From Minisyncoccota bacterium (GTDB lineage: Bacteria > Patescibacteriota > Minisyncoccia > Phycocordibacterales > VMEP01): a stretch of DNA of 64,000 nt. Position 1 is the first letter of the stretch; each line of letters starts with the position of its first letter. Below, piece after piece: positions 12,980 through 61,041 of the stretch. The notes below the pieces were generated by a model. The model worked only from the letters and a program-made list of their open reading frames with translations, ran no database searches and was not told the DNA's origin. Both the position numbers and the translations under genes were made by a program. The stretch lies in NCBI GenBank assembly GCA_041659085.1, contig JBAZYZ010000001.1:4884-68883 (forward strand). The letters run 5' to 3'.

Positions 12980-13007
12980 AAAAAACGCCCAAGAGGGCGT
13001 TTTTTAC
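12980..13007 (+). terminator. rho-independent terminator closing the 23S-tRNA-5S unit
   Basis: aaaaaacgcccaagagggcgttttttac. Confidence 0.75.
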
Positions 13008-13043
13008 TTGCCTACAAAGGTCAAAAGCTATAAGCTGGAAGTT

Positions 13044-19324: not shown

Positions 19325-19341
19325 AATAGCCCAATATTATT

Positions 19342-22123: not shown

Positions 22124-23650
<1,527 letters not shown>

Positions 23651-23884
23651 ATTGAAAATGTTCGAGATTTATTTCGAATTCTTGGCCGGTGTTTATGCTT
23701 CACAAGGGCATAAATGGGTAATTATTGCCAAAACCCTAATTCGCAATACATTGCTCTGGATGTACCAGAGCAGAAAACCTAGCGTGGGAACGCAAAGGTT
23801 GGACGGAACAAAAGAAAGAATATTAACCCGCCTAAATTTTTGCGAACAAAAATTTTGGTGGGTAAGCACTAACTATAAGTCATC

Positions 23885-36032: not shown

Positions 36033-36048
36033 AAATAAGTGTTCTGTC

Positions 36049-37591: not shown

Positions 37592-37635
37592 TTCGGTTGG
37601 AAAAGAAGGAATTTTAGTATATTGTCATCTTGTAT

Positions 37636-38484
37636 ATGGGAAATACAAAAGGAAAAGTTTGCTTGATTACCGGCGCCACTTCGGGTATTGGCAAAGAGGC
37701 GGCTATCGCTTTGGCCAGGTCCGGCATGAGGGTGGTTTTTACCGCGCGCGCTGAAAGCCCCGGCGAATCAACCAGAAAAGAAATAAAAGAAAAGACCGGC
37801 GCGGATGCGGATTATTTATTGTGCGATTTATCGTCTTTGGATGAAGTAAGAAAACTCACGGAAGAGTTTCAGAAAAAATATAACCGTCTTGATGTCCTGA
37901 TTAACAATGCCGGAGTGGGTGAGACAGAGCTTAAATTTTCCAAAGATAATATTGAAATGGATATGGCGGTGAATTATTTCGCGCCGTTCCTTCTTACCGG
38001 GCTGCTTCTGCCGGCGCTTAAAAAAAGCGCCCCATCACGCATCATTAACGTTTCTTCCATGATGCACGCGGAGGGTCATATTGATTTTGATAATTTGACC
38101 GAGGGTAAAAATTTTGAACGGTACGACACATATGCTCAATCCAAACTTGCCCTTCTATTATTTACACGCAAACTCGCGGCTGATTTGAAGGGGACAGACG
38201 TTACGGTCAATGCCATGCACCCGGGAATAATAAACACGAAGATTACGAAGGAGTTAATGAATGAAACCAACTTTATCGTTAAATCTTTTTTCCGTTTAAA
38301 AATGATAAGCGAAGAAAAAGCCGGAGATGGTATCGCGTATCTGGCGACTAACCCTAACGTTGAGGGGATGACTGGGGAGTATTTTGACAGGACGACAAGA
38401 AAGCGTTCGTCTGATGAATCTTATGACATGGAGATTGCAGAGAGGCTTTGGGCTGAAACGGAGCGTATTTTGAGACATTATTGA
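37636..38484 (+). CDS. short-chain dehydrogenase/reductase (SDR) family oxidoreductase
   Basis: 'KVCLITGATSGIGKEAA' TGxxxGxG motif; 'NNAG'; catalytic Y-x3-K region 'YAQSK'. Confidence 0.8.
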   Translation: MGNTKGKVCLITGATSGIGKEAAIALARSGMRVVFTARAESPGESTRKEIKEKTGADADYLLCDLSSLDEVRKLTEEFQKKYNRLDVLINNAGVGETELKFSKDNIEMDMAVNYFAPFLLTGLLLPALKKSAPSRIINVSSMMHAEGHIDFDNLTEGKNFERYDTYAQSKLALLLFTRKLAADLKGTDVTVNAMHPGIINTKITKELMNETNFIVKSFFRLKMISEEKAGDGIAYLATNPNVEGMTGEYFDRTTRKRSSDESYDMEIAERLWAETERILRHY

Positions 38485-38555: not shown

Positions 38556-38780
38556 ATGACAGTCGCCATCATTGATTTGCCGGATGGAGTTACCAAGATT
38601 TTGCACAGGGACAGCCACCGCATCGTCCTTCAGTTCCAGACCGCTAAAGACCTGGACGATTTCAACAGGGGGCTAAACGAAGCTCAGAAGTCTGAAGAGC
38701 AGCGCTATCAGGAAAGCCTGGAGAGAAACCCGGAGTTGGTCGGGCTAGGAGATTCCCCGGAGCCTTCCCGCGCGGAATAG
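38556..38780 (+). CDS. hypothetical small acidic protein
   Basis: 74-aa ORF; agagg 7 nt upstream; followed by a terminator. Confidence 0.4.
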   Translation: MTVAIIDLPDGVTKILHRDSHRIVLQFQTAKDLDDFNRGLNEAQKSEEQRYQESLERNPELVGLGDSPEPSRAE

Positions 38781-38793: not shown

Positions 38794-38821
38794 AAAAGCC
38801 GGGTCTGACCCGGTTTTTTTA
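38794..38821 (+). terminator. rho-independent terminator
   Basis: aaaaagccgggtctgacccggttttttt. Confidence 0.7.
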
Positions 38822-38858: not shown

Positions 38859-39911
38859 ATGAAAAAAGTCCTTATTTTAGGCATAAACGGCTTCATTGGG
38901 CACCATCTTTCAAAGCGCATTTTGGACACCACCGATTGGGAAGTTTACGGCATGGATATGCAAAGCGACCGGGTGTCGGAATTTTCTTCAAATCCAAGGT
39001 TCCATTTTTTTGAGGGTGATATTCTCGTAAACAAAGAGTGGATTGAGTACCACATAATCAAATGCGATGTTGTTTTGCCTCTTGTGGCCATCGCCACCCC
39101 CATGAGTTACGTGAAGTCTCCGCTAAAGACGTTTGAGCTTGATTTTGAGGCAAACTTGCCTATTGTACGCGCAGCAGTCAAATACAAGAAACGCCTGATT
39201 TTTCCGTCCACTTCCGAAGTGTACGGCATGAGCGATGACGCGGAATTTCATCCTTACGAATCAAATCTTGTATTGGGTCCGATAGATAAGCAGCGCTGGA
39301 TATATTCCTGTTCCAAACAAATGCTCGACCGCGTTATCTGGGCATATGGGCAGGAGCAGGGGTTTGATTTTACCTTGTTCCGTCCGTTCAACTGGATTGG
39401 AACCGGACTGGACCGGCTTTCCGCCAACAAGGAAGGCAACTCGCGCGTTATTACCCAATTTTTGGGAAACATTGTCCGCGGTCAGAGTATCCACCTGGTT
39501 GACGGCGGTTTGCAGAAGAGAGCTTTTACTTACATTGATGACGGTATTGACGCGCTTATGAAGATTATAGAGAACAAGGACAGCATCGCGACCGGCAAGA
39601 TTTACAACATTGGACACCCCGGCAACAACTGGTCCATAAAAGAACTTGCGGAGAAGATGATTGCTTTAGCGAATGAATATCCGGAATATCAAAAATATGC
39701 ACATGAGGCAAAAATTACAGACACTACCGCCGAAGGATATTACGGTAAGGGTTACCAAGATGTAAAAAATCGCGTGCCTTTTATCGAAAATACCAAGGGT
39801 GAACTTGGATGGGAGCCGAAGGTCGGGATGGAAGATGCCCTGCGCATGATTTTTGACGGTTATCGCAATCAAGTAGAGGAAGCGAGAGGGCTTGCTGATC
39901 TCGGTGTTTAA
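38859..39911 (+). CDS. UDP-glucuronic acid oxidative decarboxylase, ArnA C-terminal (dehydrogenase) domain homologue (forms UDP-4-keto-pentose)
   Basis: long colinear similarity to the E. coli ArnA decarboxylase domain recalled from memory: 'VLILGINGFIGHHL', 'HFFEGDI', 'EWIEYHIIKCDVVLPLVAIATP', 'FELDFEANL', 'FPSTSEVYGM', 'RWIYSCSKQMLDRVIWAYG', 'FTLFRPFNWIG'. Confidence 0.85.
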   Translation: MKKVLILGINGFIGHHLSKRILDTTDWEVYGMDMQSDRVSEFSSNPRFHFFEGDILVNKEWIEYHIIKCDVVLPLVAIATPMSYVKSPLKTFELDFEANLPIVRAAVKYKKRLIFPSTSEVYGMSDDAEFHPYESNLVLGPIDKQRWIYSCSKQMLDRVIWAYGQEQGFDFTLFRPFNWIGTGLDRLSANKEGNSRVITQFLGNIVRGQSIHLVDGGLQKRAFTYIDDGIDALMKIIENKDSIATGKIYNIGHPGNNWSIKELAEKMIALANEYPEYQKYAHEAKITDTTAEGYYGKGYQDVKNRVPFIENTKGELGWEPKVGMEDALRMIFDGYRNQVEEARGLADLGV

Positions 39912-39932: not shown

Positions 39933-41132
39933 ATGGCACAGCCAAAACGCATACTATTTTTTTCTTTGACCTACTATCCTTTTATTGGCGGAGCGGAGGT
40001 GGCCATAAAAGAAGTTACGGACCGTATCCCGGAAGAGAAATACAGTTTTGACATGATTACGCTCCGTTTTAACAGCGATCTGCCCCGGTTTGAGAGGTTT
40101 GGTAGCATAGATATTTTTCGTATTGGTTTCGGACAAAAAGGCGCCAAGATACAGGATTTCAATAAATTCCCGTTGTTTATAATGAAATATTTGTATCCGT
40201 TCTGGGCTTTGGCGGCAGCCGTTGTCCTCCATAGGCGAAAACCGTATGATGCCATTGCGACGGTCATGACTAGCTATGCTTCTTTTGCGGCGCTTTTCTT
40301 TAAGTTTTTATTCCCGGGAGTTCCTTATATTGTGCGTCTGGACGACGGCGACCCGTTTGAACATTATCGCAAGAAAGCAAGAATCACAGGCCCTCTTTTT
40401 GGGAAACTTTTTACCAAAGCGGATTTTGCGGTTACCGCCTCGACGTATCTTTCAAAAATGGCCAGGGAAATGGGATATAAAAAAGAAATCGCCATTGTGC
40501 CCAACGGAGTAAACGCCGAGCTTTTTTCAAAAGAGTATTCTGCGGAAGAACTTAATAAGCTTAAGAAAAAGCTCGGCAAAAAAGATGACGATTTTTATCT
40601 TATAACCACGTCGCGATTGGTCAAGAAGAATGCCTCTGATGACGTTATCAGGGCAATGCCGCTCTTGCCTCAAAATGTTAAATTTTTGATACTTGGCGTT
40701 GGTCCGGACGAAGGAATACTACATGAGCTTGCCGGTAACTTAAACGTGTCTGACCGGGTTATATTCCTTGGACAGATAGGGCGCGATGAAATCCCTAAAT
40801 ACTTGAAGATATCGGATATTTTCATTCGCCCTTCTCTTTCGGAGGGATTCGGCATTTCATTCGTTGAAGCGATGATTGCGGGGTTGCCTGTCATCGCGAC
40901 TTCGGTCGGCGGTATCACCGATTTTTTGGTTGATAAAGAAACTGGATTATTTTGCGAAGTCCGGAGTCCGGCGAGCATAGCGGAAAAAGTTAAGTTAATT
41001 ATTTCCAGTCCGGATTTAAGAGAACACATCGTGAAGACTGGCGCGCGCATGGCCCGCGAGCGGTATGATTGGAATTTGGTAGCCAAAATGATGAAAGAAA
41101 GTGTTTTTGACAGGGTGTTTAATGAAGAATAA
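39933..41132 (+). CDS. glycosyltransferase family 4
   Basis: 'RPSLSEGFGISFVEAMIAGLPVIATSVGGITDFLVDKETGLF' GT4 C-terminal motif. Confidence 0.8.
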   Translation: MAQPKRILFFSLTYYPFIGGAEVAIKEVTDRIPEEKYSFDMITLRFNSDLPRFERFGSIDIFRIGFGQKGAKIQDFNKFPLFIMKYLYPFWALAAAVVLHRRKPYDAIATVMTSYASFAALFFKFLFPGVPYIVRLDDGDPFEHYRKKARITGPLFGKLFTKADFAVTASTYLSKMAREMGYKKEIAIVPNGVNAELFSKEYSAEELNKLKKKLGKKDDDFYLITTSRLVKKNASDDVIRAMPLLPQNVKFLILGVGPDEGILHELAGNLNVSDRVIFLGQIGRDEIPKYLKISDIFIRPSLSEGFGISFVEAMIAGLPVIATSVGGITDFLVDKETGLFCEVRSPASIAEKVKLIISSPDLREHIVKTGARMARERYDWNLVAKMMKESVFDRVFNEE

Positions 41133-41135: not shown

Positions 41136-42239
41136 ATGAAAATCCTAATCGCGACCGGCATATATCCGCCGTCAATCGGTGGGCCGGCGACATATTCCAA
41201 GATACTTTTTGACGAGCTGCCGAAGCGGGGGATTGGCGCTGCGGTGTTTTCTTTTGACGAAGTCAGGCATTTGCCGAAAGTAATCAGCCATATCGCTTAT
41301 TTTTTCAAAGTTCTGGCGCACGGAGTTTCGTGCGACATTATTTATGCTCAGGATCCAATCTCTGTCGGTTTGCCGGCGCTTTTCGCCGCAAAAATTTTGA
41401 GAAAAAGGTTTTTCCTGAAAGTGGTCGGCGATTATGCCTGGGAACAGGGCGCCCAGCGCTTCGGGGTCACCGATTTGTTGGACGAGTTTTCAAAAGAGCC
41501 GTTATCGGGCTATTCCGCCCCGGTGCGGTTTTTACGCAAGGCGGAATCTTTTGTGGCCCGTAGAGCCGAGAGGGTGATAGTGCCGAGCAGATACTTGAAA
41601 AAAATTGTTACTAGGTGGGGGGTCCCGGAAGAAAGAATTTGTGTAATTTATAATGCCCTTGAGGGGGTTGCCGAGCCGGGCAATGAAGAGCATCCGAAGA
41701 TTCTTTTGAGCGGGAAATCGGTTGTTTCTGCCGGCAGACTGGTTCCGTGGAAAGGATTCCTGTCTTTGGTTGAGACGATGATTGAACTCACGAAAAAATT
41801 TCCTGATCTGAAACTCTATATCATCGGTGACGGTCCGGAACGCGAGACGATAGAGAGGAGAATAAAGCAACTGGAACTTGGCCGAAACGTTCATTTGGTC
41901 GGCGGCGTTCCGCAGAAAATGCTTTTTGAATACATAAGAGCGGGGAGTATTTTCGCTCTCAATACCGGCTACGAGGGATTTTCACACCAGCTTTTGGAGG
42001 TTATGGCGCTTGGAGTGCCGCTTGTGACAACGAACGTCGGCGGCAATCCGGAGATTGTAAGAGAAGGGGAGAATGGTCTCTTGGTTCCGTACGACGACAA
42101 GCGCGCGCTTGCCCAAGCTATTGAAAAAATGCTTCGCGACGAAGATTTTGCCGCGAAATGCGCCGCTTCGGGCAAGAGTACCGCCGCTTTGTTCACAAAG
42201 GAGAGAATGGTAGGCGATTTGGTCAAAATACTTGCATGA
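41136..42239 (+). CDS. glycosyltransferase family 4
   Basis: 'GYEGFSHQLLEVMALGVPLVTTNVGGNPEIVREGENGLLV'. Confidence 0.8.
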   Translation: MKILIATGIYPPSIGGPATYSKILFDELPKRGIGAAVFSFDEVRHLPKVISHIAYFFKVLAHGVSCDIIYAQDPISVGLPALFAAKILRKRFFLKVVGDYAWEQGAQRFGVTDLLDEFSKEPLSGYSAPVRFLRKAESFVARRAERVIVPSRYLKKIVTRWGVPEERICVIYNALEGVAEPGNEEHPKILLSGKSVVSAGRLVPWKGFLSLVETMIELTKKFPDLKLYIIGDGPERETIERRIKQLELGRNVHLVGGVPQKMLFEYIRAGSIFALNTGYEGFSHQLLEVMALGVPLVTTNVGGNPEIVREGENGLLVPYDDKRALAQAIEKMLRDEDFAAKCAASGKSTAALFTKERMVGDLVKILA

Positions 42240-43348
42240 AAGTTTTAATGATTTCAACCGACAGGAAAATATTGGAAGAAGGAAGCGCTGTTCGGGCGCG
42301 TATGGTTTTATATGGGACGATTTGTGATGAACTTCATATAATTCTGGCTTCTGTCGGCGGTAGAAAAGAGACAGCATCAATCTCCGGAAATGTTTTTGTG
42401 CATCCTACGGCCTCTCTATGCGCCGCGTTTTCCAGACTGTCTTTATTTTTGTCATCAAACCTTATTTCTGCGGATCTGGTTACCGCGCAGGATCCTTTTG
42501 AGACCGGTTTTGCCGCTTGGTACATGTCAAAAAGGGTTGGTGCCAGGCTCGAGATTCAAATCCATACCGATTTTTTGAGCCCGTATTTTGGGCGGGGATC
42601 ATTTATAAATAAAATCCGCGTTTTAATCGCAGGAATTGTTTTGCCCAGAGCTGACGGAATTCGTGTCGTATCTGAACGTATCGCGAATTCACTCGGTACT
42701 TTGCGCTTGTTACCGGGCGCCAATATTACGGTTCTCCCCATTTACGTTGATATTGAAAAAATCAGGAATTCCCAAGTGATTTCCGATTTGCGCAAAAAAT
42801 ACCCGCAGTTTGATTTTATGATACTGATGACCTCACGCCTCACGAAAGAAAAAAACATTAGTCTGGCCATTGAGGCAATGCGCGAGATCATAAATAGGCA
42901 TCCCAAGGCCGGGCTTGTTATAGTCGGTTCAGGCCCTGAAGAAGTGGAACTTAAGCTGCTTGCTAAAAAATACAATCTGCAACCCAGTATTGTTTTTGAG
43001 TCATGGTCTGATGATGTCATCTCATATATGAAAACCGCGGACTGTTTTCTGTTAACTTCAAATTATGAAGGGTTCGGGCTCTCTCTTGTTGAAGCAGCCG
43101 CATCCGATTGCCCCATTATTTCAACGGAGGTGGGTATCATTGGCGAGCTTTTGCGTCCCGAGGAGGATATCTTGGCTTGCCCGGTTGGCGACGCCGGCTG
43201 TATCTTGGACAGGTTGGAACGCCTTATGAATTCTCCCGGTCTCGCCCACCAACTTTCTTTAAAAGCCCAATCTTCGTTTAAGCCACTTATAATGAGCAAG
43301 GAGGATTATTTAAAGAAGTTACGCACGGCTTGGGAAAAGTGTTTTTAG
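42236..43348 (+). CDS. glycosyltransferase family 4
   Basis: ATGA overlap with the upstream stop; 'SNYEGFGLSLVEAAASDCPIISTEVGIIGELL'. Confidence 0.75.
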   Translation: MKVLMISTDRKILEEGSAVRARMVLYGTICDELHIILASVGGRKETASISGNVFVHPTASLCAAFSRLSLFLSSNLISADLVTAQDPFETGFAAWYMSKRVGARLEIQIHTDFLSPYFGRGSFINKIRVLIAGIVLPRADGIRVVSERIANSLGTLRLLPGANITVLPIYVDIEKIRNSQVISDLRKKYPQFDFMILMTSRLTKEKNISLAIEAMREIINRHPKAGLVIVGSGPEEVELKLLAKKYNLQPSIVFESWSDDVISYMKTADCFLLTSNYEGFGLSLVEAAASDCPIISTEVGIIGELLRPEEDILACPVGDAGCILDRLERLMNSPGLAHQLSLKAQSSFKPLIMSKEDYLKKLRTAWEKCF

Positions 43349-43392
43349 TTTGTTATACTACCCGGGCTTATAAGGGTTTGTTTAGATGCTAT

Positions 43393-44403
43393 ATGCCAAA
43401 AACCGCAAAAAAATACAAAAAGATTTTAGTGACAGGGACGGCCGGTTTTATCGGATTTCACCTTGCCAAGGAGCTGCTTAGAGACAAGGACTGCGAGGTT
43501 GTTGGCATCGACAGCATAACCGACTATTACGATGTCCGTATGAAGCAAAAACGTAATGAGGTTTTGAAAAAATACTCCAATTACACATTCTATAAAGTTA
43601 ACCTGGCTGATTATAAAAAACTTGAAAATATAATCAAAAAAGAGAAGCCGGAGGCTATAATCCATCTGGCGGCCCAGGCAGGAGTCAGGTATTCTCTTAC
43701 CAACCCGTGGGCTTACGAACAGTCAAACTATTTAGGGACACTCAATATTTTTGAGGCATCGAAAAATTTCGGCATCAAACGTGTGCTGTTTGCTTCCTCA
43801 AGTTCGGTTTACGGTTCCAACAAAAAAGTTCCATTTAGTGAGAAAGACATAGTTGACCACCCTATTTCAATTTATGCCGCATCCAAAAAGGCCAACGAAG
43901 TTCTTGCCCATTCATACCACCATCTTTACGGCACAGAAACTGCCGGCATGAGATTCTTTACAGTCTATGGCGAATATGGCCGGCCGGACTTGGCTCTTTT
44001 CAAGTTCACTAAAAATATTCTGCTTGATAAGCCTATTGATGTCTATAACGGCGGCAAGATGATGAGGGACTTTACGTATGTTGACGATATTGTTGCCGGG
44101 ATTATCGGGATACTGAACAAGAGGGATTTAAAGTACGAGATTTACAATTTGGGAGGCGACAACCCCGTGTCTCTTATGGGGTTCATAAGACTGATTGAAA
44201 AATTTTTGGGAAAGAAAGCTAAAATCAATTTTATGCCGCTTCAGCCGGGGGATGTGACAAAAACGATGGCGGATATATCAAAAGCCAAAAAAGAAATAGG
44301 ATTTGAACCAAAAACGCGGATAGAGGATGGTACCGAGAAATTCATCCGCTGGTTTCTGGAGAATAAGAACTGGCTTCTTAAGCTGGAAGACCCCAAGCAG
44401 TAG
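43393..44403 (+). CDS. NAD-dependent epimerase/dehydratase (UDP-glucuronate/UDP-sugar 4-epimerase-like)
   Basis: 'ILVTGTAGFIGFHLAKELL'; 'YAASKKANE' Y-x3-K; extended SDR length. Confidence 0.75.
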   Translation: MPKTAKKYKKILVTGTAGFIGFHLAKELLRDKDCEVVGIDSITDYYDVRMKQKRNEVLKKYSNYTFYKVNLADYKKLENIIKKEKPEAIIHLAAQAGVRYSLTNPWAYEQSNYLGTLNIFEASKNFGIKRVLFASSSSVYGSNKKVPFSEKDIVDHPISIYAASKKANEVLAHSYHHLYGTETAGMRFFTVYGEYGRPDLALFKFTKNILLDKPIDVYNGGKMMRDFTYVDDIVAGIIGILNKRDLKYEIYNLGGDNPVSLMGFIRLIEKFLGKKAKINFMPLQPGDVTKTMADISKAKKEIGFEPKTRIEDGTEKFIRWFLENKNWLLKLEDPKQ

Positions 44404-44461
44404 GTTTTCTAAGGGAAATGCCGGTTTGGCAAAAACGTTTGATTTAATTACAATAGCCCCC

Positions 44462-45304
44462 ATGGATAAAAATAAAAAAATTGGTTTTATCGGTCAGGGA
44501 TATATAGGCAAAAACTACGCCGACGATTTTGAGAAACGCGGCTATTCGGTTGTGCGCTATGCTTTAGAAGAACCTCATATTTCAAACAAAGAGAAGATCG
44601 CGGAATGTGACATTGTGTTTATCGCCGTGCCGACCCCGACAACTCCGGAAGGATTTGACGACCATATCGTTGACGAGGCCATTAATCTTGTTGGCGCTGG
44701 CAAAATTGCCGTGATTAAGTCCACGGTTCTTCCGGGCACTACGGAGAAACTTCAAAGGGCGCATAGCGGTGTCTTGGTATTAAATTCGCCGGAATTTCTT
44801 TCGGAAGCGACAGCGGCGCATGATGCGGCTCATCCGGCGCAAAATATTATCGGCATTCCCGAGGACACGGCCGGGCATCGCGAAGCCGCGGAGCTTGTCT
44901 TGTCTATTTTGCCGGAAACACAGAGTTCGCTCGTGTGTAAAAGCGCCGAATCCGAGCTTTTCAAGTACGCGCATAACATGAGCGGCTATGTGCAGATTGT
45001 GCTGTTTAATATTATTTATGATTTGGCGCAAAAATTAGGCTGTGACTGGGAGCCTATTCAGAAAGCGATTGAAGCGGACCCGCTTATTTCCAACCGATAC
45101 GCGCGGCCGATTCACAAAAGCGGAAGGGGCGCAGGAGGTCACTGTTTTATAAAAGATTTTGAAGCTTTTTCGAGCCTTTATCACAGCAAGATTGCTGACC
45201 CGCTCGGGGACAAGGTAATGGCCGCTTTGAGGGAGAAAAATATTGATTTGCTGAAAAAGAGCGGCAAAGATTTGGATTTATTGAAAGGAGTTTATGGCAA
45301 TTAG
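44462..45304 (+). CDS. UDP-glucose/GDP-mannose dehydrogenase family protein (short form, 280 aa)
   Basis: N-terminal 'KIGFIGQGYIGKNYA' Rossmann motif; 'GRGAGGHCFIKDFEAF' resembling the UGDH catalytic Cys motif GFGGSCFPKD. Confidence 0.55.
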   Translation: MDKNKKIGFIGQGYIGKNYADDFEKRGYSVVRYALEEPHISNKEKIAECDIVFIAVPTPTTPEGFDDHIVDEAINLVGAGKIAVIKSTVLPGTTEKLQRAHSGVLVLNSPEFLSEATAAHDAAHPAQNIIGIPEDTAGHREAAELVLSILPETQSSLVCKSAESELFKYAHNMSGYVQIVLFNIIYDLAQKLGCDWEPIQKAIEADPLISNRYARPIHKSGRGAGGHCFIKDFEAFSSLYHSKIADPLGDKVMAALREKNIDLLKKSGKDLDLLKGVYGN

Positions 45305-46989: not shown

Positions 46990-47034
46990 ACGATGGAGAT
47001 TCCTTGTTGGTCATTTTTTGAGTAAGATTATGTG

Positions 47035-47712: not shown

Positions 47713-48845
47713 ATAGAAAGCTGATTTACATCGCCAATATAAGATTACCGACGGAAAAAGCGCACGGCATTCAGATAATGAAAACCTGCGAAGCTTTTGC
47801 TCGTGCGGGTTTACGGGTTGAACTTGTCGTACCGTGGCGGAATAATGAAATAAAAGACAGCCCGTTTGATTATTACGTAGTAGAAAAGATTTTTGGTATC
47901 CGCCGGATTTTTTCTCTTGACTTGGTTTCATTTGGGAAAATTGGTTTTTTGATACAGCTGGCGACTTTTTCCGTCGCGGTTCTTTGGAAAATCTATTTTG
48001 GGCGTGACAAAAATCAGCAGACGTTTTTTTATTCCCGCGACGAACTCCCTCTTTTCTTACTGTCGCTTTTCCCGTCGCTACGAAACCACATTGTTTGGGA
48101 AGCTCATATGGGACATATGAATATGTTTATATACACTCTTATCAAGCGTCATGTTCCGGTCGTGGCTATTTCCAATGGACTTATGGAATTGTATCGTTCT
48201 TGCGGGGCAAAAAATATTTTGGTTGCTCCTGACGGCGTGGATTTGGGGCAATTTAGTGTTAAGGAAAATAAAAAAGAAGCCAGGGCGGAGCTTGATTTAC
48301 CGGAAGACAAACATATTGTTTTGTACACAGGTCATCTTTATGTGCGGAAGGGGGTTGATACGCTGGCGCAGGCTGTTTCTAAGCTTAGCGATGACACCTG
48401 CGTTGTTTTTGTGGGAGGGACAAAAAAGGACACAGAATCATTCAAAAGTAAGTATGGAGATATAGAGAATATAATGATTCTGGGAGGTAAGCCCCATAGT
48501 GAAATTCCCATGTACCTTCGAGCCGCCGATGTATTGATTATCCCGAATAGCGCCAAAGAAGAAGACTCGCGACTCTATACTTCACCGATGAAGCTTTTTG
48601 AATATATGGCAAGCGGTGTTCCCATTGTTGCTTCTAATCTGCCGTCGCTTAGGGAGGTTTTGAATGAAGAAAATGCTATATTGGTGCAGCCGGATAGTCC
48701 GGCGGATTTAGCTGACGGCATAGTTTCTGTTTTTAGCGATGAAAAAAAATCTGCGATATTGGCAGAGAAAGCCCTAGAGGACGTCCTCCGATACAGTTGG
48801 GCAAAACGGGCGGAAGCGATTATAAGTTTCATATATACCAATTGA
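47709..48845 (+). CDS. glycosyltransferase family 4
   Basis: '[32 protein letters not shown]'. Confidence 0.8.
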
Positions 48846-48877
48846 ATTTAAAAATAAAAATCAAAAATTTTTTTCTT

Positions 48878-49258
48878 ATGCTCATGAGCTGGTATTTTCT
48901 GAAAAGTGTAATTTCAGGAGGAACCACGGCTCTTGTTGACCTATCTCTATTGTTTGTTTTTCGGGAGATACTACACGTGTCTTATTGGTTATCAGTCAAC
49001 ACTTCTTTTGCCGTTGCCATCGCAGTTAATTTTTCCCTTCAGAAATTCTGGACCTTTTCCAATAAAGATTTAGATTCTGCGCACAAACAATTTATTAAGT
49101 TTTTTCTGTTGGCGATGGGGAATATGGCTATGAATAGTTTGCTTATGTATGTGTTGTCAATCGTGTTTGGCCTTTGGTATCTCGGGGCGCAAGTTATTAC
49201 AATAGGTACGTTGGCAATAGTAAATTTTGTCTTGTACAGGAATTTTGTTTTCAAATAG
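48878..49258 (+). CDS. GtrA-family membrane protein (polyprenyl-P-sugar translocation)
   Basis: 126 aa; 4 TM helices; 'ISGGTTALVDLSLLFVF...VNFSLQKFWTFS' GtrA-like signature; immediately upstream of the GtrB/ArnC-like GT2. Confidence 0.7.
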   Translation: MLMSWYFLKSVISGGTTALVDLSLLFVFREILHVSYWLSVNTSFAVAIAVNFSLQKFWTFSNKDLDSAHKQFIKFFLLAMGNMAMNSLLMYVLSIVFGLWYLGAQVITIGTLAIVNFVLYRNFVFK

Positions 49259-49321: not shown

Positions 49322-50263
49322 ATGAAGCTATCGGTCATTATCCCCGTCTATAATGAAGAAGAGAACATAAAAAAGCTACACAGGGAGCTTGTTTCTGTCA
49401 TGGGTGACATCAAACTTTCTTATGAGATTATTTGGGTCAACGACGGTTCCAAAGACGCTAGTCTGGCGGTGCTTGAGGAAATAGCAAAGATTGATGCGAA
49501 TTCAAAGATTATAGATTTTGCGCGAAATTTCGGACAGACTGCCGCAATGTCGGCCGGTATTAAGCAGGCGACGGGAGACATTATTATACCGATGGACGCC
49601 GATTTGCAGAATGACCCGGTTGATATTCCTAAGTTTTTAAAAAAGATTGAAGAGGGCTACGACGTAGTTTCTGGCTGGCGCAAGAATCGCAAGGACGCCC
49701 TTCTCTTAAGAAAGGTTCCTTCATGGATTGCAAATTCAATTATCGCCGCCATTACCGGTGTGCGTATTCATGATTACGGATGTTCAATGAAAGCTTATAG
49801 GCGAGATATTATCCAGGGAATTATTCTTTATGGAGAGATGCATCGTTTTATTCCGGCATACGTGGGTTGGCATGGAGGCAAGGTGACCGAGATTGTGGTC
49901 AATCATCGCCCGCGTATTCACGGAGAGACTAAGTACGGAATTTCGCGTACCTTCCGCGTAATTCTTGACCTCATTTTAATAAAATTCCTTTCAAAGTATA
50001 TGAATCGCCCCATTCATTTTTTTGGGGGGATAGGTTTTATGTCTCTGGCTCTTGGCGGGATAGCCGCTATCGCCGCGGTTTACCTGAAGTTGTTTAATTC
50101 GATATCCTTTATCACGACTCCGTTGCCTATCTTTTCGGCAATGCTGGTGATCGTCGGCGTGCAGCTTATTGCCATGGGCGTTATAGCGGAAATGCTTATG
50201 CGCGTCTACTATGAGTCGCAGGGGAAACAGCCTTATTCCATTAAGAAGACCATGAACACCTAA
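49322..50263 (+). CDS. GT2 polyprenyl-phosphate glycosyltransferase (ArnC/GtrB/DPM1-like)
   Basis: 'LSVIIPVYNEEENI', 'WVNDGSKD', 'IIPMDADLQNDP' DxD; two C-terminal TM helices. Confidence 0.85.
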   Translation: MKLSVIIPVYNEEENIKKLHRELVSVMGDIKLSYEIIWVNDGSKDASLAVLEEIAKIDANSKIIDFARNFGQTAAMSAGIKQATGDIIIPMDADLQNDPVDIPKFLKKIEEGYDVVSGWRKNRKDALLLRKVPSWIANSIIAAITGVRIHDYGCSMKAYRRDIIQGIILYGEMHRFIPAYVGWHGGKVTEIVVNHRPRIHGETKYGISRTFRVILDLILIKFLSKYMNRPIHFFGGIGFMSLALGGIAAIAAVYLKLFNSISFITTPLPIFSAMLVIVGVQLIAMGVIAEMLMRVYYESQGKQPYSIKKTMNT

Positions 50264-50267: not shown

Positions 50268-52157
50268 ATGTGCGGTATAGCGGGATATTCAGGGGAGGGG
50301 GATACTCTTATTCTAAAGAAAATGGCGGATACGCTGCGCCATCGTGGGCCTGATGATGAGGGATACTACTCTGATGGACGCGTGGGGTTGGCTCACAGGC
50401 GTCTTTCCATTATAGATTTAAGCCCCGCCGGACATCAGCCGATGACGGTGGAAAAAGGAGATATCCAGGTTGTTTTCAATGGGGAGATTTATAATTTTGG
50501 GGATTTAAGGAAGGGCCTTGAGTCTCGACATAAGTTTACGGGCCATTCAGATACTGAAGTCATAGCTCATCTGTACGAAGAAACCGGCGAAAAAGTCTTT
50601 TCAAAAATAGACGGGATGTTCGCGATTGCCATTTATGACAAAACCCGCAGTAAACTTTTTTTGGCGCGAGACCGCATGGGCAAGAAGCCGCTTTATTACG
50701 GAATATTTGACGGTACCCTGATCTTTGGATCCGAATTGAAAGCTCTGATGGTTCATCCGAAATTTGAAAAAGAGCTTGATATAGTTTCCTTAAACAAATA
50801 TCTCCAATACGAATACATACCGACACCCCATACCATGTTTAAAAATGTCTGGAAGCTTGAGCCTGGACACTATGCTTCGTATGACGGCACAGTACTTACT
50901 AAGACTAAATTTTGGGAGATATCTTTCGTGGGGAAAGAAATAGAAGCTCCTTCGCTTAAGGATTCACTCGAGCGTCTGGACACGCTGCTTTATAATGCCG
51001 TGAAAAAACGCATGGTAAGCGATGTTCCGCTTGGCATTTTTCTGAGCGGCGGGATTGATTCAAGCACCATCGCTTATTACGCGCAAAGAATAGCCCGCGA
51101 AAACGGAGCAAAACCGGTTAAAACATTTTCCATAGGCTTCAGCGAAGGCAGTTTTGACGAATCCGCTTATGCTCGTCAGGTATCAAAATATTTGGGTACC
51201 GAGCACGAGGAGAAGATTCTAAGCGCCAAGGATTCACTCTCACTTATACCGGACATAGCGGATTTTCTGGACGAGCCCCTTGCCGACGCGTCTATTATTC
51301 CGACTTATTTGCTCTCGCGCTTTACGCGTGAACACGTGACGGTTGCTTTAGGCGGCGACGGGGGAGACGAGCTCTTGTGCGGTTACGATACGTTTCTTGC
51401 TCACAGGCTTGCGGATATTTACGAAAAAATTCCCGAGTTTATGCGAAAGGATATTTTTGAAAAACTGATTCCGCTTCTGCCGGTTTCGCAAAGAAATATG
51501 AGCTTTGATTTCAAGGCAAAGAAATTTATCGCCGGTTTTTACGGTGATAAAAAATATCGCAATCAGAGATGGCTGGGTGCTTTTGATAAGTCAGAGCGCG
51601 CAGAGCTTTTTTCGAGTGAGGTTTGGAGAGGGCTTGAGGGGGCTAATGAGTTTGATGACATAGATCGCTACTTGGCGGAATGTCCGAGCGATGATTACTA
51701 TAACCAGCTTATGTTTATGTATCTCCGCACCTATATGATGGACGATATTTTAGTGAAGGTTGACCGGGCCAGTATGTACAACTCTCTTGAGGTGCGCGCG
51801 CCGTTTCTGGACACGGAGGTTGTTAATTTTCTCGTCAAACAACCCCTGTCATTTAAGTTGCGCGGTCTTACTACCAAGTATCTTCTGAAGCAACTCATGG
51901 AAGATAAGTTACCTAGTGAAATAGTGTATCGCAATAAAAAAGGTTTTGGGATACCGCTTACAGAGTGGCTCAAAGGGGAGTTGAAACCTCTTGTTAAAGA
52001 GACATTAAGCGAGGAAAGCATTAAAAATCAAGGTTTGTTTAATATGGAGTATATTGATAAGCTTAAAAAAGAACACTTCTCCGGCCAGAAGGACAACAGG
52101 AAACAGTTATGGGCGCTCATGGTTTTCTCCTTATGGCACAAAAAGTGGATGGAATAA
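50268..52157 (+). CDS. asparagine synthetase B-family glutamine amidotransferase (possible sugar-uronate amidotransferase, WbpS-like)
   Basis: N-terminal 'MCGIAGY' Ntn nucleophile; 'SGGIDSS' PP-loop. Confidence 0.85.
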   Translation: MCGIAGYSGEGDTLILKKMADTLRHRGPDDEGYYSDGRVGLAHRRLSIIDLSPAGHQPMTVEKGDIQVVFNGEIYNFGDLRKGLESRHKFTGHSDTEVIAHLYEETGEKVFSKIDGMFAIAIYDKTRSKLFLARDRMGKKPLYYGIFDGTLIFGSELKALMVHPKFEKELDIVSLNKYLQYEYIPTPHTMFKNVWKLEPGHYASYDGTVLTKTKFWEISFVGKEIEAPSLKDSLERLDTLLYNAVKKRMVSDVPLGIFLSGGIDSSTIAYYAQRIARENGAKPVKTFSIGFSEGSFDESAYARQVSKYLGTEHEEKILSAKDSLSLIPDIADFLDEPLADASIIPTYLLSRFTREHVTVALGGDGGDELLCGYDTFLAHRLADIYEKIPEFMRKDIFEKLIPLLPVSQRNMSFDFKAKKFIAGFYGDKKYRNQRWLGAFDKSERAELFSSEVWRGLEGANEFDDIDRYLAECPSDDYYNQLMFMYLRTYMMDDILVKVDRASMYNSLEVRAPFLDTEVVNFLVKQPLSFKLRGLTTKYLLKQLMEDKLPSEIVYRNKKGFGIPLTEWLKGELKPLVKETLSEESIKNQGLFNMEYIDKLKKEHFSGQKDNRKQLWALMVFSLWHKKWME

Positions 52158-52168
52158 TTACGAACATT

Positions 52169-52750: not shown

Positions 52751-54727
52751 ATGGTTTTTATTGCTGTAAAACTATTTCTGTTTTTATTTGCAGTCATTTC
52801 TTTTGGCTATTTGGCGAGTTTTCTTTTTTTGAAAGAAAGAAAAATTTCCACCCTTATTCCGTTCTCTGTCCTTATCGGCGTAAGCGGATATGTATTTTTC
52901 GTCAACACATTTTCTTATTTTGTCGGAGTTAAGGAGGTTGTGTGGCTGGTATTACTACTATTTGTACTGTTTATTTTTTATCAAATTTACGCAAAGGGGA
53001 TAGGGGGATTTCGTCCGGAAATTGATTTAACAGGGAAAGAGTCTAAAATTCTTTTTAGTCTGGCAATAATAATTTCAATAACATCGGGGATTGTCGCCTT
53101 AAGAGCCCTTGACCCGGACGGATACGTTCATTTGACATTTTCCTCAACTATAAGTGAAGGGAATTTCCCTCTTATGAATCCGGTAGATCCAGACACGCTT
53201 ATTCCGTATCACTACGCGCCGGATTTGCTTTCTGCCGCGATGCATAGAGTAACCGGCGTCTCGCTATTGTGGGGTTACAATATTCAGACTTTCTTCTTTA
53301 GCGGCCTGACTTTTTTACTCGCTTTTATTTTGGCTTTTTATGTGACCGGAAGATTTTACACTTCAATAATTGCGTCTTTGTTTTTCTTCTTTGGAGCGGG
53401 GGCTCTTTTTTTGAATATTACACACGGATTTTCTCCCCTCTATCACAAGTATATTTTGGGTGAAAACGCAGTTGGCGCATGGAAATTTGTGGCCGAGATG
53501 CTTTGGCCTAAGATAAATAATTTTTATACTTATGCAATTAGAAATTACACAACGGTTATGGGCACGCCGATAATGCTTTCTGTCATATACTTATATTTTA
53601 AATTCATTGATGAAGGCAAAACTCAAATCAAAAAAATAATTATTGCAGGACTCCTTCTCGGTTTTTTGGCATTAAGCCTGGAAACAAATTTTGTTATACT
53701 GTCGTTCGTTTTAGGGCTATCCCTGCTCTATAAAATCTATTTGTTGTCTTGCAATAAGAACGATGATTTGAGAGAAAGGTATCTCAATGGCGTAAAAGTA
53801 ATAGTCCTTGTTTTGTTCATAGGTTCGGCAGTTGCGTATATGCAGGGAGGGGTTATAACCGCTTCTTTGAAGAGCGATAAAGGTGTCGTTGCCGGCCAAA
53901 GCTCCGGAGTTGGTGGGCGGCAGAGTTTTGTCTTGAATGGCAACCCTTCAGAACTTATAATTTCGCGTCAGGGAGAAGACAAGGTTCCAATATTTAGTTT
54001 GACCTTTTTAAAAGAATTCGGCCTTACTCTTATTTTGTTTCCGTTGGCAGTTTTTGTTTTCAGGAGAGATAAAAAAATATTATTTTTATCGTCAGTCGGC
54101 CTGACAGCTTTTTTGATTCCAATTTTCGTTATCTACGCTTCTTGGCCAGGGGAATTGGCCAGGGTATTTGTTGTATCTACTACAATTTTTTCTTTTGTTT
54201 CCGCTCTTTTTATCTGTCTTCTCTACGGTAAGTATAAAGAAAACATAAAAATTAAATCTATTTTGATTACCATCTCTTTGATGGTAATATTTGGTGGACT
54301 TTCTTTCCAATTAGTTTCTATGGTTACCCCGTACAGTAATTTTGGCAAGATTAGAGTTCCTTTTGCGGCGAGTCTTCCCGCGCTTTCTGATACTGACAGC
54401 AGGGTTTATGAATGGGTACGCGCCAATACAGTCAATTCATCCAGGTTTTTCCCCTACAATCAAAGATTAATAATTGAGACGGGCAGAATGTCTCCAAGCG
54501 ATATCGTTGGATTTGTCCCGAAGTATAAAATTCCGATTTACAAAGATATTGCTGATAATTGCGGGACAGATTCAATAAAGAAACTGGGAATAAATTATTT
54601 TGTCTTGTCTCCGGGCGGTTTTTCCAAGGAAAGTTTTCTAGGCAAATGTTCCTCACTTAATTCCGGTTTAGTTTTTAGCGTTAAGGAGGGCGGGGATTAT
54701 CGGGAGATTTACCAGATAAAGAATTAA
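52751..54727 (+). CDS. large polytopic membrane protein (~13 TM plus extracytoplasmic C-terminal domain); candidate GT-C-type glycosyltransferase/polymerase
   Basis: 658 aa; many hydrophobic helices; soluble C-terminal ~130 aa; no firm family motif identified. Confidence 0.6.
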   Translation: MVFIAVKLFLFLFAVISFGYLASFLFLKERKISTLIPFSVLIGVSGYVFFVNTFSYFVGVKEVVWLVLLLFVLFIFYQIYAKGIGGFRPEIDLTGKESKILFSLAIIISITSGIVALRALDPDGYVHLTFSSTISEGNFPLMNPVDPDTLIPYHYAPDLLSAAMHRVTGVSLLWGYNIQTFFFSGLTFLLAFILAFYVTGRFYTSIIASLFFFFGAGALFLNITHGFSPLYHKYILGENAVGAWKFVAEMLWPKINNFYTYAIRNYTTVMGTPIMLSVIYLYFKFIDEGKTQIKKIIIAGLLLGFLALSLETNFVILSFVLGLSLLYKIYLLSCNKNDDLRERYLNGVKVIVLVLFIGSAVAYMQGGVITASLKSDKGVVAGQSSGVGGRQSFVLNGNPSELIISRQGEDKVPIFSLTFLKEFGLTLILFPLAVFVFRRDKKILFLSSVGLTAFLIPIFVIYASWPGELARVFVVSTTIFSFVSALFICLLYGKYKENIKIKSILITISLMVIFGGLSFQLVSMVTPYSNFGKIRVPFAASLPALSDTDSRVYEWVRANTVNSSRFFPYNQRLIIETGRMSPSDIVGFVPKYKIPIYKDIADNCGTDSIKKLGINYFVLSPGGFSKESFLGKCSSLNSGLVFSVKEGGDYREIYQIKN

Positions 54728-58335: not shown

Positions 58336-59298
58336 ATGGATAAAAATATTAAATGGCAAAAGACAGGCAAGATTCTTAAGATTTTATTTTCACTTTTTCT
58401 GTTTGTGTGCGTCATCCTCGTCTTAAAGATAAATCTGCCCTCCGTACTTGTCTTCATAAAGAATATTCCGGTTGTTTATATTTTTTCAGCGCTGTTGGTT
58501 TATTTGCTCGCCGTTTTTGTGGCATCAATTAAATGGAGGTTGTTCCTCCCCAATTATTCAATAAGGCGAATTCTAAGATATACATTTGTCGGACAATTCT
58601 ACTCTGTTATTTTACCCGGGCAGTTTGTTGGGGAGGCGGCTAAGGCCTATCGCCTTGGGGCCGTGAACAAAAATTTGGAAGAGGTTGGCGCGTCCGTCTT
58701 ATTGGATAAGGCCACAGGTATATTGGGCATACTTATCGTCGCTTTTGTAGGAATTGTCTTTACTGGATCGTTTCTTCCTCCAGCCTTGCTCTATATTATC
58801 TTGTTCGGATTAATTATATGTGTATTGGTTTTGTTATTGCTCCGCAGGGAAGAAGTATATGTGTTTGTACACCGAAAGATATTGTCAGCAGAAGACAGAC
58901 ATCTTGCGCTGAATAGTTTTTTGCGTTTCATTCGTATTTTTGTTGAACATTGGCACGAATATTCAAGAAGGACAGGCAGACTATTGCTTAGCGTATTTGC
59001 CGGGGTAATATACCAGCTCTTGATAGTTGCTTTAATTGCCATTCTGGCTTCAGGGTTAAATATTTATCTTTCGTTTTTTGACTGGTCGTGGATATTCGGC
59101 ATTGTGTCTGTCTCAGTTTTCATTCCGGTTACAATAGGGGGAATAGGCTTGAGAGAGGGGGTGTTTGTTGGTCTTCTGTCCCTGCTTCATGTGTCGCCGG
59201 AATTGGCGGTATCGCTCTCCCTAGCTTCCTTTGCTTTTCAACTACTGGGGGCTTTGATTGGCGGAACATTTGAGGCGATGGAGTTAAAAAACCGTTAG
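58336..59298 (+). CDS. flippase-like membrane protein (UPF0104/YbhN/MprF-N-terminal-like)
   Basis: 8 TM helices; 'RILRYTFVGQFYSVILPGQFVGEAAKAYRLG' typical of lysylphosphatidylglycerol-synthase-TM-region-like proteins. Confidence 0.65.
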   Translation: MDKNIKWQKTGKILKILFSLFLFVCVILVLKINLPSVLVFIKNIPVVYIFSALLVYLLAVFVASIKWRLFLPNYSIRRILRYTFVGQFYSVILPGQFVGEAAKAYRLGAVNKNLEEVGASVLLDKATGILGILIVAFVGIVFTGSFLPPALLYIILFGLIICVLVLLLLRREEVYVFVHRKILSAEDRHLALNSFLRFIRIFVEHWHEYSRRTGRLLLSVFAGVIYQLLIVALIAILASGLNIYLSFFDWSWIFGIVSVSVFIPVTIGGIGLREGVFVGLLSLLHVSPELAVSLSLASFAFQLLGALIGGTFEAMELKNR

Positions 59299-59313: not shown

Positions 59314-61041
59314 ATGGAGAAAATTACCAAAATAATTCAGGAATACCGCTTTGTTTTGCTTCTAGCCGTTTTTTGTGGCGCTGTCTATGTGGCACCCCAT
59401 TTGTTTTTTAAGATTACCCTTGGGAACTCCTTCCACGGCATTGAACTTACACCAAGGGATGCGGAGACACATTACCTGTCAATGCTGAATGAGGTCAAAC
59501 AGGGATACCTTACCCATAGCAGCACATATTTGTATGAATATAAGGATAGTAAAGTGTCCCCGATTGAATATTCCGAGACATTTTACGGGACGATAATAAA
59601 ACTTTTCAATCTTGGAGCTCCTGGATTTTATTTATTTTGCGAGTTCTTTTTTCCGGTAGTTATATTTTTACTTTGGTATTATTTTTCCTTGCTTGTTACC
59701 AAAAACAAAAGGAGCGCTATTTTGTCAGCTCTTTTTTTAATGTTCGGTACCTACATTTTAAGCAACGTAAGCATCATAAAACAATTTGATATTTTATTTT
59801 GGAAGACGGCAAACATACCTCTCCTTGCCTACGGCAGAATTATAAATCCATTACTTACATTCCCATTCTTTTTTGCCGGTCTAATCTTCGCTTATAAGCT
59901 GTTCTCTGAGAACACAAAAAAAATGGCGGTCTTTTCCGGCATAGCTCTGGGAATAATGTTTTATGTCTATTTTTACTTTTGGACATATTTTTTAGCCCTG
60001 AGTTTTTTAATGCTGGTGTTCGGAGTGTCGAAAAAAGAGTGGCAATTGGTGAAAAATATTTCTCTAAGTATTTCTATATCTCTGCTCATTGGTTCATATT
60101 TTATTGTCAGTATGATAAAGACGGTCGTTAGTTCAGTTGGGGTTCAATCCGGAGGCTCATTATCTCCATATGTTTTTGCCTTAAGCCATAATCCGTCCCT
60201 GCCGTCCTTGGTGGTTTTGGGAGTGGCGTTATTTTCTTTTTTTATTTATTTGAGGAGGAGAAAGGGGATACCATTGGAGAGAGGGGATGCATTCATCTTT
60301 CTCCTGTTATCTACTGCCGTAGTTGTTGTTAATCAGCAGATAATAACTGGACGGTCTGTTGAACCGGGACACTTTCATTGGTATGCGAATGTGCCGGTTT
60401 TCTTTTTAACTGTAAGTTATATCATTGTCGACTTGTTGGGAAAAATAAGAATAAGATATCTTGGCAAAACGTTATTTATAATTTTATGTTTATATCTAAT
60501 CACGTTTGGCATAGGTACACAGGTTTCCGGATATAAACAGAGGTTTGATAATTTTTCTTATATTCAGAAATACGGAGCTGTCTTCGACTGGTTCAATAGG
60601 AATACGGAAAAAGAATCGGTTATTTTTGGCGGAAACGGATTTTCGGATCTCACTCCTGCATATACCCAAAATAATGTCTATTTTGCAGCTTACGGGGCTT
60701 ACTACCCGTCTAATCCGCTCGAACGCAGAATTCATACCGCATACATTTATTATTTCTTGGATAATAAAAAGGAGGACATTTTGCAAAAGATTTATCCATC
60801 CTTAACTTCAAATGGCTGTGTCAGCGCCGGATGTGTTGATTCTGACATTTTTGCAAAAACTATGGCTAATTATGGAGAATTTTTAAAGACGCCATTTTAT
60901 GAAAATTTGAAAAAATATAGGGTAGACTATATGGTCTGGGACAAAAACACGAACCCTTCATGGAATTTGGATAAGTTTAGTTTCTTAAAACCAGTCTATA
61001 ATTATGATAATGTTCTGGTTTATAAAATTTTAAACAAATGA
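59314..61041 (+). CDS. large polytopic membrane protein with extracytoplasmic C-terminal domain; candidate GT-C glycosyltransferase/polymerase
   Basis: 575 aa; ~11 TM helices then ~170-aa soluble domain; no firm family motif. Confidence 0.55.
   Translation: MEKITKIIQEYRFVLLLAVFCGAVYVAPHLFFKITLGNSFHGIELTPRDAETHYLSMLNEVKQGYLTHSSTYLYEYKDSKVSPIEYSETFYGTIIKLFNLGAPGFYLFCEFFFPVVIFLLWYYFSLLVTKNKRSAILSALFLMFGTYILSNVSIIKQFDILFWKTANIPLLAYGRIINPLLTFPFFFAGLIFAYKLFSENTKKMAVFSGIALGIMFYVYFYFWTYFLALSFLMLVFGVSKKEWQLVKNISLSISISLLIGSYFIVSMIKTVVSSVGVQSGGSLSPYVFALSHNPSLPSLVVLGVALFSFFIYLRRRKGIPLERGDAFIFLLLSTAVVVVNQQIITGRSVEPGHFHWYANVPVFFLTVSYIIVDLLGKIRIRYLGKTLFIILCLYLITFGIGTQVSGYKQRFDNFSYIQKYGAVFDWFNRNTEKESVIFGGNGFSDLTPAYTQNNVYFAAYGAYYPSNPLERRIHTAYIYYFLDNKKEDILQKIYPSLTSNGCVSAGCVDSDIFAKTMANYGEFLKTPFYENLKKYRVDYMVWDKNTNPSWNLDKFSFLKPVYNYDNVLVYKILNK

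Follow-up and report, generated by a model that had tools for sequence, protein, structure and literature searches.

The 64,000-nucleotide stretch analysed here (the window; positions 4,884 to 68,883 of contig JBAZYZ010000001.1, assembly GCA_041659085.1, from a Minisyncoccota bacterium) contains, at 38859-39911, a gene for a 350-aa protein predicted to be an NAD+-dependent UDP-glucuronic acid (UDP-GlcA) C4-oxidase/C6-decarboxylase of the stand-alone ArnA-decarboxylase subfamily (NF008872). In the Patescibacteria lineages, this decarboxylase is uncoupled from the aminoarabinose pathway and is fixed beside a cytoplasmic family 4 glycosyltransferase (GT4). On balance, we consider it probable that an ArnA-type decarboxylase, shared through an old transfer and operating without Arn partners, supplies the adjacent GT4 with a UDP-pentose (probably UDP-xylose, UDP-Xyl) that is used in a surface glycan. 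Patescibacteria, or the candidate phyla radiation (CPR), are not classical producers of lipopolysaccharide (LPS), and although their cell-surface chemistry is of central importance to life as episymbionts, almost nothing is known about it.

A stand-alone decarboxylase of the ArnA type

The open reading frame (ORF) is located on the forward strand, starts with ATG, and comprises 350 codons for a short-chain dehydrogenase/reductase (SDR) of the extended type (Pfam families Epimerase and GDP_Man_Dehyd). The single-domain product scored 617.5 bits against the equivalog model NF008872 (cutoff, 294), with residues 1-346 aligned to positions 1-346 of the 349 positions in the model. Its score against the ArnA model NF005998 was 491 bits, which is under the equivalog cutoff of 777 because only half of that model, namely the decarboxylase half (positions 316-647), was aligned. 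Against PDB entries, the protein scored 555 bits with 3SLG (deposited as 'PbgP3 protein'), approximately 417 with the entries for the ArnA C-terminal domain, 206 with plant UDP-apiose/xylose synthase (UAXS), and 89 with human UDP-xylose synthase (UXS) 1.

The identity to the C-terminal domain of ArnA from Escherichia coli MG1655 is 53-55% over approximately 335 residues. The NAD-binding GxxGxxG motif is present (G8-INGFIG-14), and residues T118, S119, E120, Y149, K153, and R305 correspond to the catalytic set T432, S433, E434, Y463, K467, and R619 of ArnA, of which residues N492, R510, R535, Y398, and R460 are also kept in the alignment. Because all of the catalytic and substrate-binding residues of ArnA that were examined are conserved, an initial annotation of this DNA was correct in describing the protein as a motif-for-motif match to ArnA, and its designation as a stand-alone homologue of the ArnA decarboxylase is likewise borne out. 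All that is required for the NAD+-dependent C4 oxidation and decarboxylation of UDP-GlcA is present in the protein.

In a neighbour-joining tree (200 bootstraps), the Patescibacteria-type decarboxylases formed a clade (84% bootstrap), and this clade and the stand-alone enzymes of Betaproteobacteria formed a joint clade (99.5%). Fused ArnA (E. coli and a 679-aa representative, 100%) branched just outside the joint clade. Both the tree and the PDB scores thus group the protein with the ArnA_DH lineage and with neither UXS nor UAXS. The comparison of ArnA_DH and UXS phylogenies proposed in the initial annotation therefore fell on the ArnA_DH side, and the clustering with UXS that it had named as the contrary outcome was not observed, the protein being nested in the ArnA_DH lineage. 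The exact sequence is already in NCBI under the NF008872 name (MFA5841381.1), and the look-up of this sequence assigned the window to a 76.9-kb contig of a Candidatus Paceibacterota metagenome-assembled genome. On every point that could be tested, the protein behaves as a member of NF008872 and is neither a new enzyme nor a UXS. The implication that the enzyme is unusual in itself does not hold for a full-length, above-cutoff family member that is already known and correctly named in public databases, and the gain from the present analysis is contextual rather than fundamental.

Pfam scans covered every window ORF large enough for the remaining Arn enzymes, and six-frame tblastn searches of the 64 kb were performed using the Arn proteins of Ferrovum myxofaciens (from locus L007) and E. 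coli as queries. Only the decarboxylase (72 and 55% identity, respectively) and a family 2 glycosyltransferase (GT2; 31 and 34% identity to ArnC) were found. ArnB was not found in the window: no ORF contains PF01041, the best tblastn match had an E-value of 0.53, and E. coli ArnB gave no match at E ≤ 1. There was no Formyl_trans Pfam match for an ArnA N-formyltransferase, fused or split (best tblastn E = 0.059, a short noise match), no tblastn match with E below 0.3 for ArnD, ArnT, or ArnE/F, and no match to PMT_2, Arnt_C, Polysacc_deac_1, or EamA in any window ORF. The absence of ArnB and of the ArnA formyltransferase from the window, as stated in the initial annotation, was thereby confirmed.

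Gene neighbourhoods and origin of the decarboxylase

A scan of species-representative genomes yielded 80 loci, and all flanks were searched by tblastn. In 57 of the 58 non-Patescibacteria loci with at least 5.5 kb of upstream DNA, genes for a formyltransferase and ArnC (at least 55% identity) lie directly upstream of the decarboxylase gene; ArnB and ArnT are present in 52 and 53 of these loci, respectively. The sole exception, in Noviherbaspirillum suwonense (L065; NZ_FXUL01000015.1), has no Arn partner within ±10 kb. In Ferrovum and one relative, the decarboxylase gene is the last in the order arnT-arnE/F-arnB-arnC-formyltransferase-decarboxylase, and a split ArnA (arnA1/arnA2) arrangement is known in Burkholderia (PMC4993015).

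Database matches with 76-92% identity to the decarboxylase, plus one with 69%, are all on contigs sharing the synteny of the window, and the Patescibacteria relatives comprise L002, L003/L004, L005/L006, and L009 (identical to L021; Patescibacteria group bacterium UBA6899). No Arn partner was found in any of the eight Patescibacteria-type loci (five lineages), the flanks of which were read up to 10 kb on each side, and an orthologue of the window GT4 (47-66% identity) is encoded directly downstream of the decarboxylase in all eight. In L005, a 13.7-kb stretch contains no glycan-related genes other than those for an SDR, a small ORF, the decarboxylase, and GT4, indicating that the decarboxylase-GT4 pair is the conserved unit. 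A contig that seemed to place a full arn operon in a CPR genome (L053, JBLMVY010000008.1, 'Candidatus Levyibacteriota') was rejected as almost certainly misbinned because its GC content is 69% and it shares 85-88% nucleotide identity along its length with the betaproteobacterial contigs L027, L057, and L075.

The gap between the decarboxylase and GT4 genes is 21 nt in the window. Upstream, an orthologue of the classical SDR (adh_short; 36-51% identity) is found in four of the five Patescibacteria lineages, with an RmlD/epimerase-like extended SDR in its place in L002, and a called gene for 62-78 aa with weak sequence conservation occupies the equivalent position between the SDR and the decarboxylase in L001, L002, L003, and L005. 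Because a terminator-like hairpin and T-run (Table 1) are situated between this small ORF and the decarboxylase gene, the SDR and small ORF would be transcribed apart from the downstream pair, which suggests that the decarboxylase and GT4 genes have a transcript of their own.

The closest relatives outside Patescibacteria are enzymes of Betaproteobacteria (69-74% identity), and identities within the Patescibacteria-type clade are 69-92%. The identity of approximately 70% between the two groups, compared with only 31% between the neighbouring GT2 and ArnC, points to an inter-phylum transfer, and an old event of this kind is the most likely explanation for a gene common to both lineages. The GC content of the gene (45.9%) agrees with that of its surroundings (approximately 44% for the neighbours), which argues against both contamination and recent import and for an old transfer event. 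Given the overwhelming share of betaproteobacterial members in the species-representative scan, transfer into Patescibacteria would be the more economical reading of its direction. Only eight positions (residues 83, 91, 155-156, 186-188, and 260) separate the Patescibacteria-type decarboxylases from 111 betaproteobacterial sequences. One of these positions adjoins the equivalent of Y398, and residues 186-188 (RLS versus SIH between the clades) are aligned to ArnA 500-502, which we take to be part of a loop that moves upon substrate binding.

The rRNA genes of the window are unlinked: the 23S rRNA gene (8716-12368) is followed by three tRNA genes (12474-12762) and the 5S rRNA gene (12858-12963), and the 16S rRNA gene is located at 22115-23652. 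Between the 5S and 16S rRNA genes are approximately 9 kb of protein genes (FtsW, GT4, sugar transferase, SDR, PAP2, SecD, and SecF), and the cell-wall and Sec genes of the window are on a common strand. The 23S match is 3653 nt long, compared with 2925 nt for the model, corresponding to an insertion of approximately 700 nt, for which no Rfam intron family was reported in the rRNA scan of the window. Given the unlinked 23S and 16S rRNA genes, the long 23S match, and the same-strand cell-wall and Sec genes, the window looks Patescibacteria-like. A 322-aa ORF at 12849-13817, which matches no Pfam family, begins inside the 5S rRNA gene, and its true start is therefore farther downstream.

Possible fate of the decarboxylation product

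ArnA-type enzymes release UDP-4-keto-pentose and NADH (PMC12338863, PMC10338323), and ArnA reduces the keto product to UDP-Xyl upon accumulation of NADH (PMC12338863). UDP-4-keto-pentose is also known to be reduced stereospecifically to UDP-Xyl by UDP-GlcA 4-epimerase (PMC12338863), and a gene resembling that for this enzyme is present in the same cluster as the decarboxylase gene (Table 1). In the proposed pathway, UDP-GlcA would undergo NAD+-dependent C4 oxidation and decarboxylation to UDP-4-keto-pentose. With no transaminase draining the 4-keto intermediate, the flux would end in a UDP-pentose, probably UDP-xylose, and the GT4 encoded by the presumably co-transcribed adjacent gene would use this UDP-pentose as a donor for the surface glycan. 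The locus thus predicts that an enzyme normally reserved for polymyxin resistance in Proteobacteria, i.e. for the 4-amino-4-deoxy-L-arabinose (Ara4N) pathway, is used in CPR bacteria without a transaminase, with its pentose entering a GT4-built glycan. We put forward only tentatively the stronger proposition that Patescibacteria repurposed the Ara4N decarboxylase, through an inter-phylum transfer involving Betaproteobacteria, as a UDP-xylose synthase (or other supplier of a 4-keto-pentose-derived sugar) hard-wired to GT4. If true, wall-bearing, LPS-free ultra-small bacteria would carry a pentose-containing surface glycan made via an ArnA-type enzyme in place of UXS. No publication connecting Patescibacteria with ArnA or UDP-xylose emerged from a literature search. 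The interest of the locus lies in the consistent coupling of the decarboxylase and GT4 in Patescibacteria and in the implied co-option of an Ara4N enzyme.

Several points weigh against this proposal. The bootstrap value for betaproteobacterial monophyly is 41% in the neighbour-joining tree, so that sister and nested placements, and the direction of transfer, are not separable. The window contains no canonical full-length UDP-glucose dehydrogenase (UGDH), and as its only UGDH-like protein is a short form without the UDP-binding domain, the supply of UDP-GlcA is unproven. NCBIfam searches with the partner GT4s returned generic sub-cutoff matches only, none informative on donor specificity, and we infer both the product ratio of the Patescibacteria enzyme and the GT4 donor. 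The absence of Arn partners described above applies to the 64-kb window, and an aminotransferase may be encoded elsewhere in the genome.

The initial annotation had also noted an ArnC-like GT2 and candidate glycosyltransferases of the GT-C fold, both of which are present, and had proposed that the sugar derived from the decarboxylase is carried on a polyprenyl phosphate. Approximately 9 kb downstream of the decarboxylase gene, a GT2 with a C-terminal transmembrane (TM) hairpin, a GtrA-family protein, and a GT-C protein are encoded in one locus. The GT2 scored 216 bits against the ArnC model (cutoff, 529) and 186 against PgfS (cutoff, 500), with PDB scores of 187 bits for ArnC and a nearly equal 159 bits for GtrB. 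Assignment of its donor by ArnC-specific residues was attempted and abandoned, as only the ArnC-like DADLQN motif was readable, which is too weak. ORF658 has the GT-C membrane fold (Foldseek match to DPY19, E = 4e-8); in alignment A1, R118, D123, T133, and G137-N-F-P140 are invariant and H127 and E136 nearly invariant after TM helix 4. ORF575, with multiple TM segments and a soluble C-terminal domain, is a probable GT-C protein and remote paralogue of the ORF658 family (hhalign probability 93.5%, E = 2.3e-7, 315 columns). These genes form a real but separate polyprenyl-phosphate-sugar module, not demonstrably linked to the decarboxylase: in Magasanikbacteria, an ORF658 homologue directly follows GT2 with no decarboxylase called within ±8 kb, and the flanks read in the decarboxylase-bearing Patescibacteria relatives contained no called GT2 or GtrA. 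The polyprenyl-phosphate proposal is therefore not supported by synteny, the conserved partner being GT4. An ArnC-type link is further weakened because ArnC accepts only a formylated donor (PMC12690121) and the window has no formyltransferase. In one Magasanikbacteria locus (L091, 1506-4802, LBYK01000001.1), genes for a PMT_2 (ArnT-like) GT-C protein, Polysacc_deac_1, and Formyl_trans_N, a trio resembling ArnT, ArnD, and the ArnA formyltransferase, are located beside the pair of GT2 and the ORF658 homologue; this genome also encodes radical-SAM/B12 enzymes and a full-length UGDH nearby.

It is unlikely that the window holds part of a scattered standard Ara4N pathway, in which genes at other sites in the genome encode an ArnB-type aminotransferase, formyltransferase, deformylase, and ArnT-like GT-C protein, undecaprenyl phosphate receives the amino-pentose through the GT2, and one of the GT-C proteins passes the sugar on to a surface polymer distinct from lipid A. 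ArnB, the formyltransferase, ArnD, ArnT, and ArnE/F were found neither in the 64 kb nor within ±10 kb in the five Patescibacteria lineages, whereas proteobacterial arn loci are almost invariably clustered. The identity of the GT2 to ArnC (31-34%; 216 bits against a cutoff of 529) also contrasts with that of the decarboxylase to its counterpart (72%), indicating that the two were not inherited together, and the formylated donor required by ArnC and the relatives' flanks without a called GT2 or GtrA likewise speak against this pathway. A different outcome would follow if UDP-4-keto-pentose were the true product and the neighbouring SDR (adh_short, or the extended SDR of L002) reduced it stereospecifically to, e.g. 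UDP-beta-L-arabinose, with two enzymes together bypassing UXS and UDP-xylose 4-epimerase. An SDR is encoded immediately upstream in all five Patescibacteria lineages (adh_short in four, extended in L002), and characterized family members release the 4-keto product (PMC10338323). However, the decarboxylase is set off from the SDR and small ORF by the terminator-like hairpin, the type of SDR varies between lineages, and the adh_short protein, matched best by general oxidoreductase models (PRK06197, below cutoff), shows no sugar-nucleotide signature. We know of no described UDP-4-keto-pentose reductase of this kind, and such a route seems quite improbable.

The identity of 69-76% to betaproteobacterial enzymes is unusually high for a Patescibacteria protein, and the L053 locus turned out to lie on a betaproteobacterial contig that had been misbinned. 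It is nevertheless extremely unlikely here that the gene stems from proteobacterial DNA misbinned or present as a contaminant, or that it is a decaying, functionless remnant of a transfer. The same 64-kb stretch holds Patescibacteria-style unlinked rRNA and housekeeping genes, the decarboxylase gene matches its neighbours in GC content and is intact with every catalytic residue, and it belongs to a clade of its own with 69-92% identity, its synteny being kept in five lineages. Synteny and composition effectively refute this explanation, and the supply of a UDP-pentose to the adjacent GT4 remains the preferred one.

Other genes of the window and comparison with known systems

Beginning at 38.8 kb, all remaining genes of the window are on the forward strand and glycan-related (Table 1), so that the decarboxylase-GT4 pair heads a large surface-glycan cluster comprising six to seven GT4 genes, one family 9 glycosyltransferase (GT9) gene, eight genes for S-adenosylmethionine (SAM)-dependent methyltransferases, and genes for AsnB, an epimerase-like SDR, and a short UGDH-like protein. 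The run of three GT4 genes that begins with the decarboxylase partner is also found in L003 and L004. The structures most closely related to the epimerase-like SDR are presumably UDP-GlcA 4-epimerases. The UGDH-like protein retains the catalytic GGHCFIKD motif together with an N-terminal and a central domain and lacks the C-terminal UDP-binding domain. Its interpretation as a frameshifted pseudogene was rejected because the interval up to the next gene is too small for a C-terminal domain and because the short form recurs in L009, where two copies (17789-18697 and 19213-20076; approximately 280-300 aa, GGxCFxKD) flank a 165-aa ORF.

Table 1. Coordinates of the decarboxylase gene and other features of the window
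Feature	Position	Strand	Basis
Classical SDR (adh_short), recurrent upstream neighbour	37630..38484	+	Pfam adh_short 155 bits
Small ORF, 74 aa, between SDR and decarboxylase	38556..38780	+	Called gene, position shared
GC-rich hairpin CCGGGTCTGACCCGG followed by T-run, terminator-like	38799..38820		Direct sequence reading and hairpin scan
UDP-glucuronic acid decarboxylase, ArnA type (predicted)	38859..39911	+	NCBIfam, PDB scores, catalytic residues, NCBI name
GT4 glycosyltransferase, conserved downstream partner	39933..41132	+	Pfam Glycos_transf_1 / Glyco_transf_4
Two further GT4 genes	41136-42239 and 42158-43348	+	Pfam
Extended SDR, probable UDP-glucuronic acid 4-epimerase	43330..44403	+	Best solved relatives 5U4Q (353 bits), 6ZL6 series, MoeE5
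Short UGDH-like protein, ~280 aa, probable start near 44462	44327..45304	+	Partial Pfam / NCBIfam matches, PDB alignment
GtrA-like small membrane protein, putative polyprenyl-phosphate-sugar flippase	48797..49258	+	Pfam GtrA_DPMS_TM 78.6 bits
GT2 polyprenyl-phosphate glycosyltransferase (ArnC/GtrB/PgfS-like)	49322..50263	+	Two C-terminal TM helices, segments 231-295
AsnB-type glutamine amidotransferase	50268..52157	+	Pfam Asn_synthase 338 bits; TIGR01536 500 bits, above cutoff
GT-C fold glycosyltransferase ORF658, 658 aa, no Pfam family	52751..54727	+	GT-C membrane fold
Flippase-like membrane protein (LPG_synthase_TM / TIGR00374)	58336..59298	+	Pfam 117.6 bits; TIGR00374 52.7 bits, above cutoff
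Second polytopic membrane protein ORF575, 575 aa, probable GT-C	59314..61041	+	hhalign to ORF658 family; TM segments
GT9 (heptosyltransferase-family) gene	61038-62198	+	Below all LPS heptosyltransferase equivalog cutoffs

The groups amidated by AsnB-type enzymes are carboxylates; 4-keto sugars are not transaminated by them. The AsnB-type protein of the window, which the initial annotation regarded as present 'instead' of ArnB, is therefore no functional substitute for it. Its score against the XrtA/PEP-CTERM amidotransferase model was 603 bits, below the cutoff of 817, and it fits better as a putative uronic-acid amidation step acting with the UDP-GlcA 4-epimerase-like SDR. The SAM-dependent methyltransferase genes (46300-46989, 47032-47712, 52109-52741, 54737-55576, 56703-57449, 57446-58321, 62179-62874, and 62853-63773), one of which is TylF-like, are interleaved with those for glycosyltransferases, suggesting a heavily methylated glycan. 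Just upstream of the SDR-decarboxylase-GT4 module, genes for a VirD4/TraG-like coupling ATPase (628 aa) and then a secreted protein with LTD and PKD domains (34146-37491) form a pair that is kept in L003, L004, and L009.

The NF008872 family includes RsU4kpxs of Ralstonia solanacearum and 3SLG. The window protein shares its length, single-domain organization, and catalytic residues with RsU4kpxs and the decarboxylase of the betaproteobacterial split ArnA (ArnA2 of Burkholderia, 3SLG), with approximately 70-74% identity to betaproteobacterial members. The two differ in context: the betaproteobacterial gene comes after arnT-arnE/F-arnB-arnC-formyltransferase and is in most cases followed by arnD, whereas the Patescibacteria gene has no Arn partners, GT4 as its fixed partner, and eight clade-specific substitutions. 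The same chemistry, from UDP-GlcA to UDP-4-keto-pentose, is expected for the C-terminal domain of E. coli ArnA (1U9J, 2BLL, 1Z7E), but the window protein has neither the fused N-terminal formyltransferase domain nor the Ara4N context. UXS enzymes, human UXS1 and bacterial forms alike, catalyse the same class of reaction and may yield the same end product, UDP-xylose; they keep NADH and set free UDP-Xyl as the sole product, in contrast to ArnA-type enzymes, from which the keto intermediate is released (PMC10338323, PMC12338863).

Like the GtrA/GtrB/GtrC systems (and ArnC/ArnEF/ArnT, PgfS, and CsbB/YfhO), the window has a GtrA, a GT2 resembling both ArnC and GtrB, and a GT-C protein. Its GT-C proteins differ in matching no Pfam family and in having few homologues, two of them from Patescibacteria metagenome-assembled genomes, and the module is interleaved with AsnB and methyltransferase genes, with no evidence tying it to the decarboxylase. 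For annotation, the occurrence of an ArnA-type decarboxylase together with an ArnC-like GT2 should not be equated with an Ara4N pathway.

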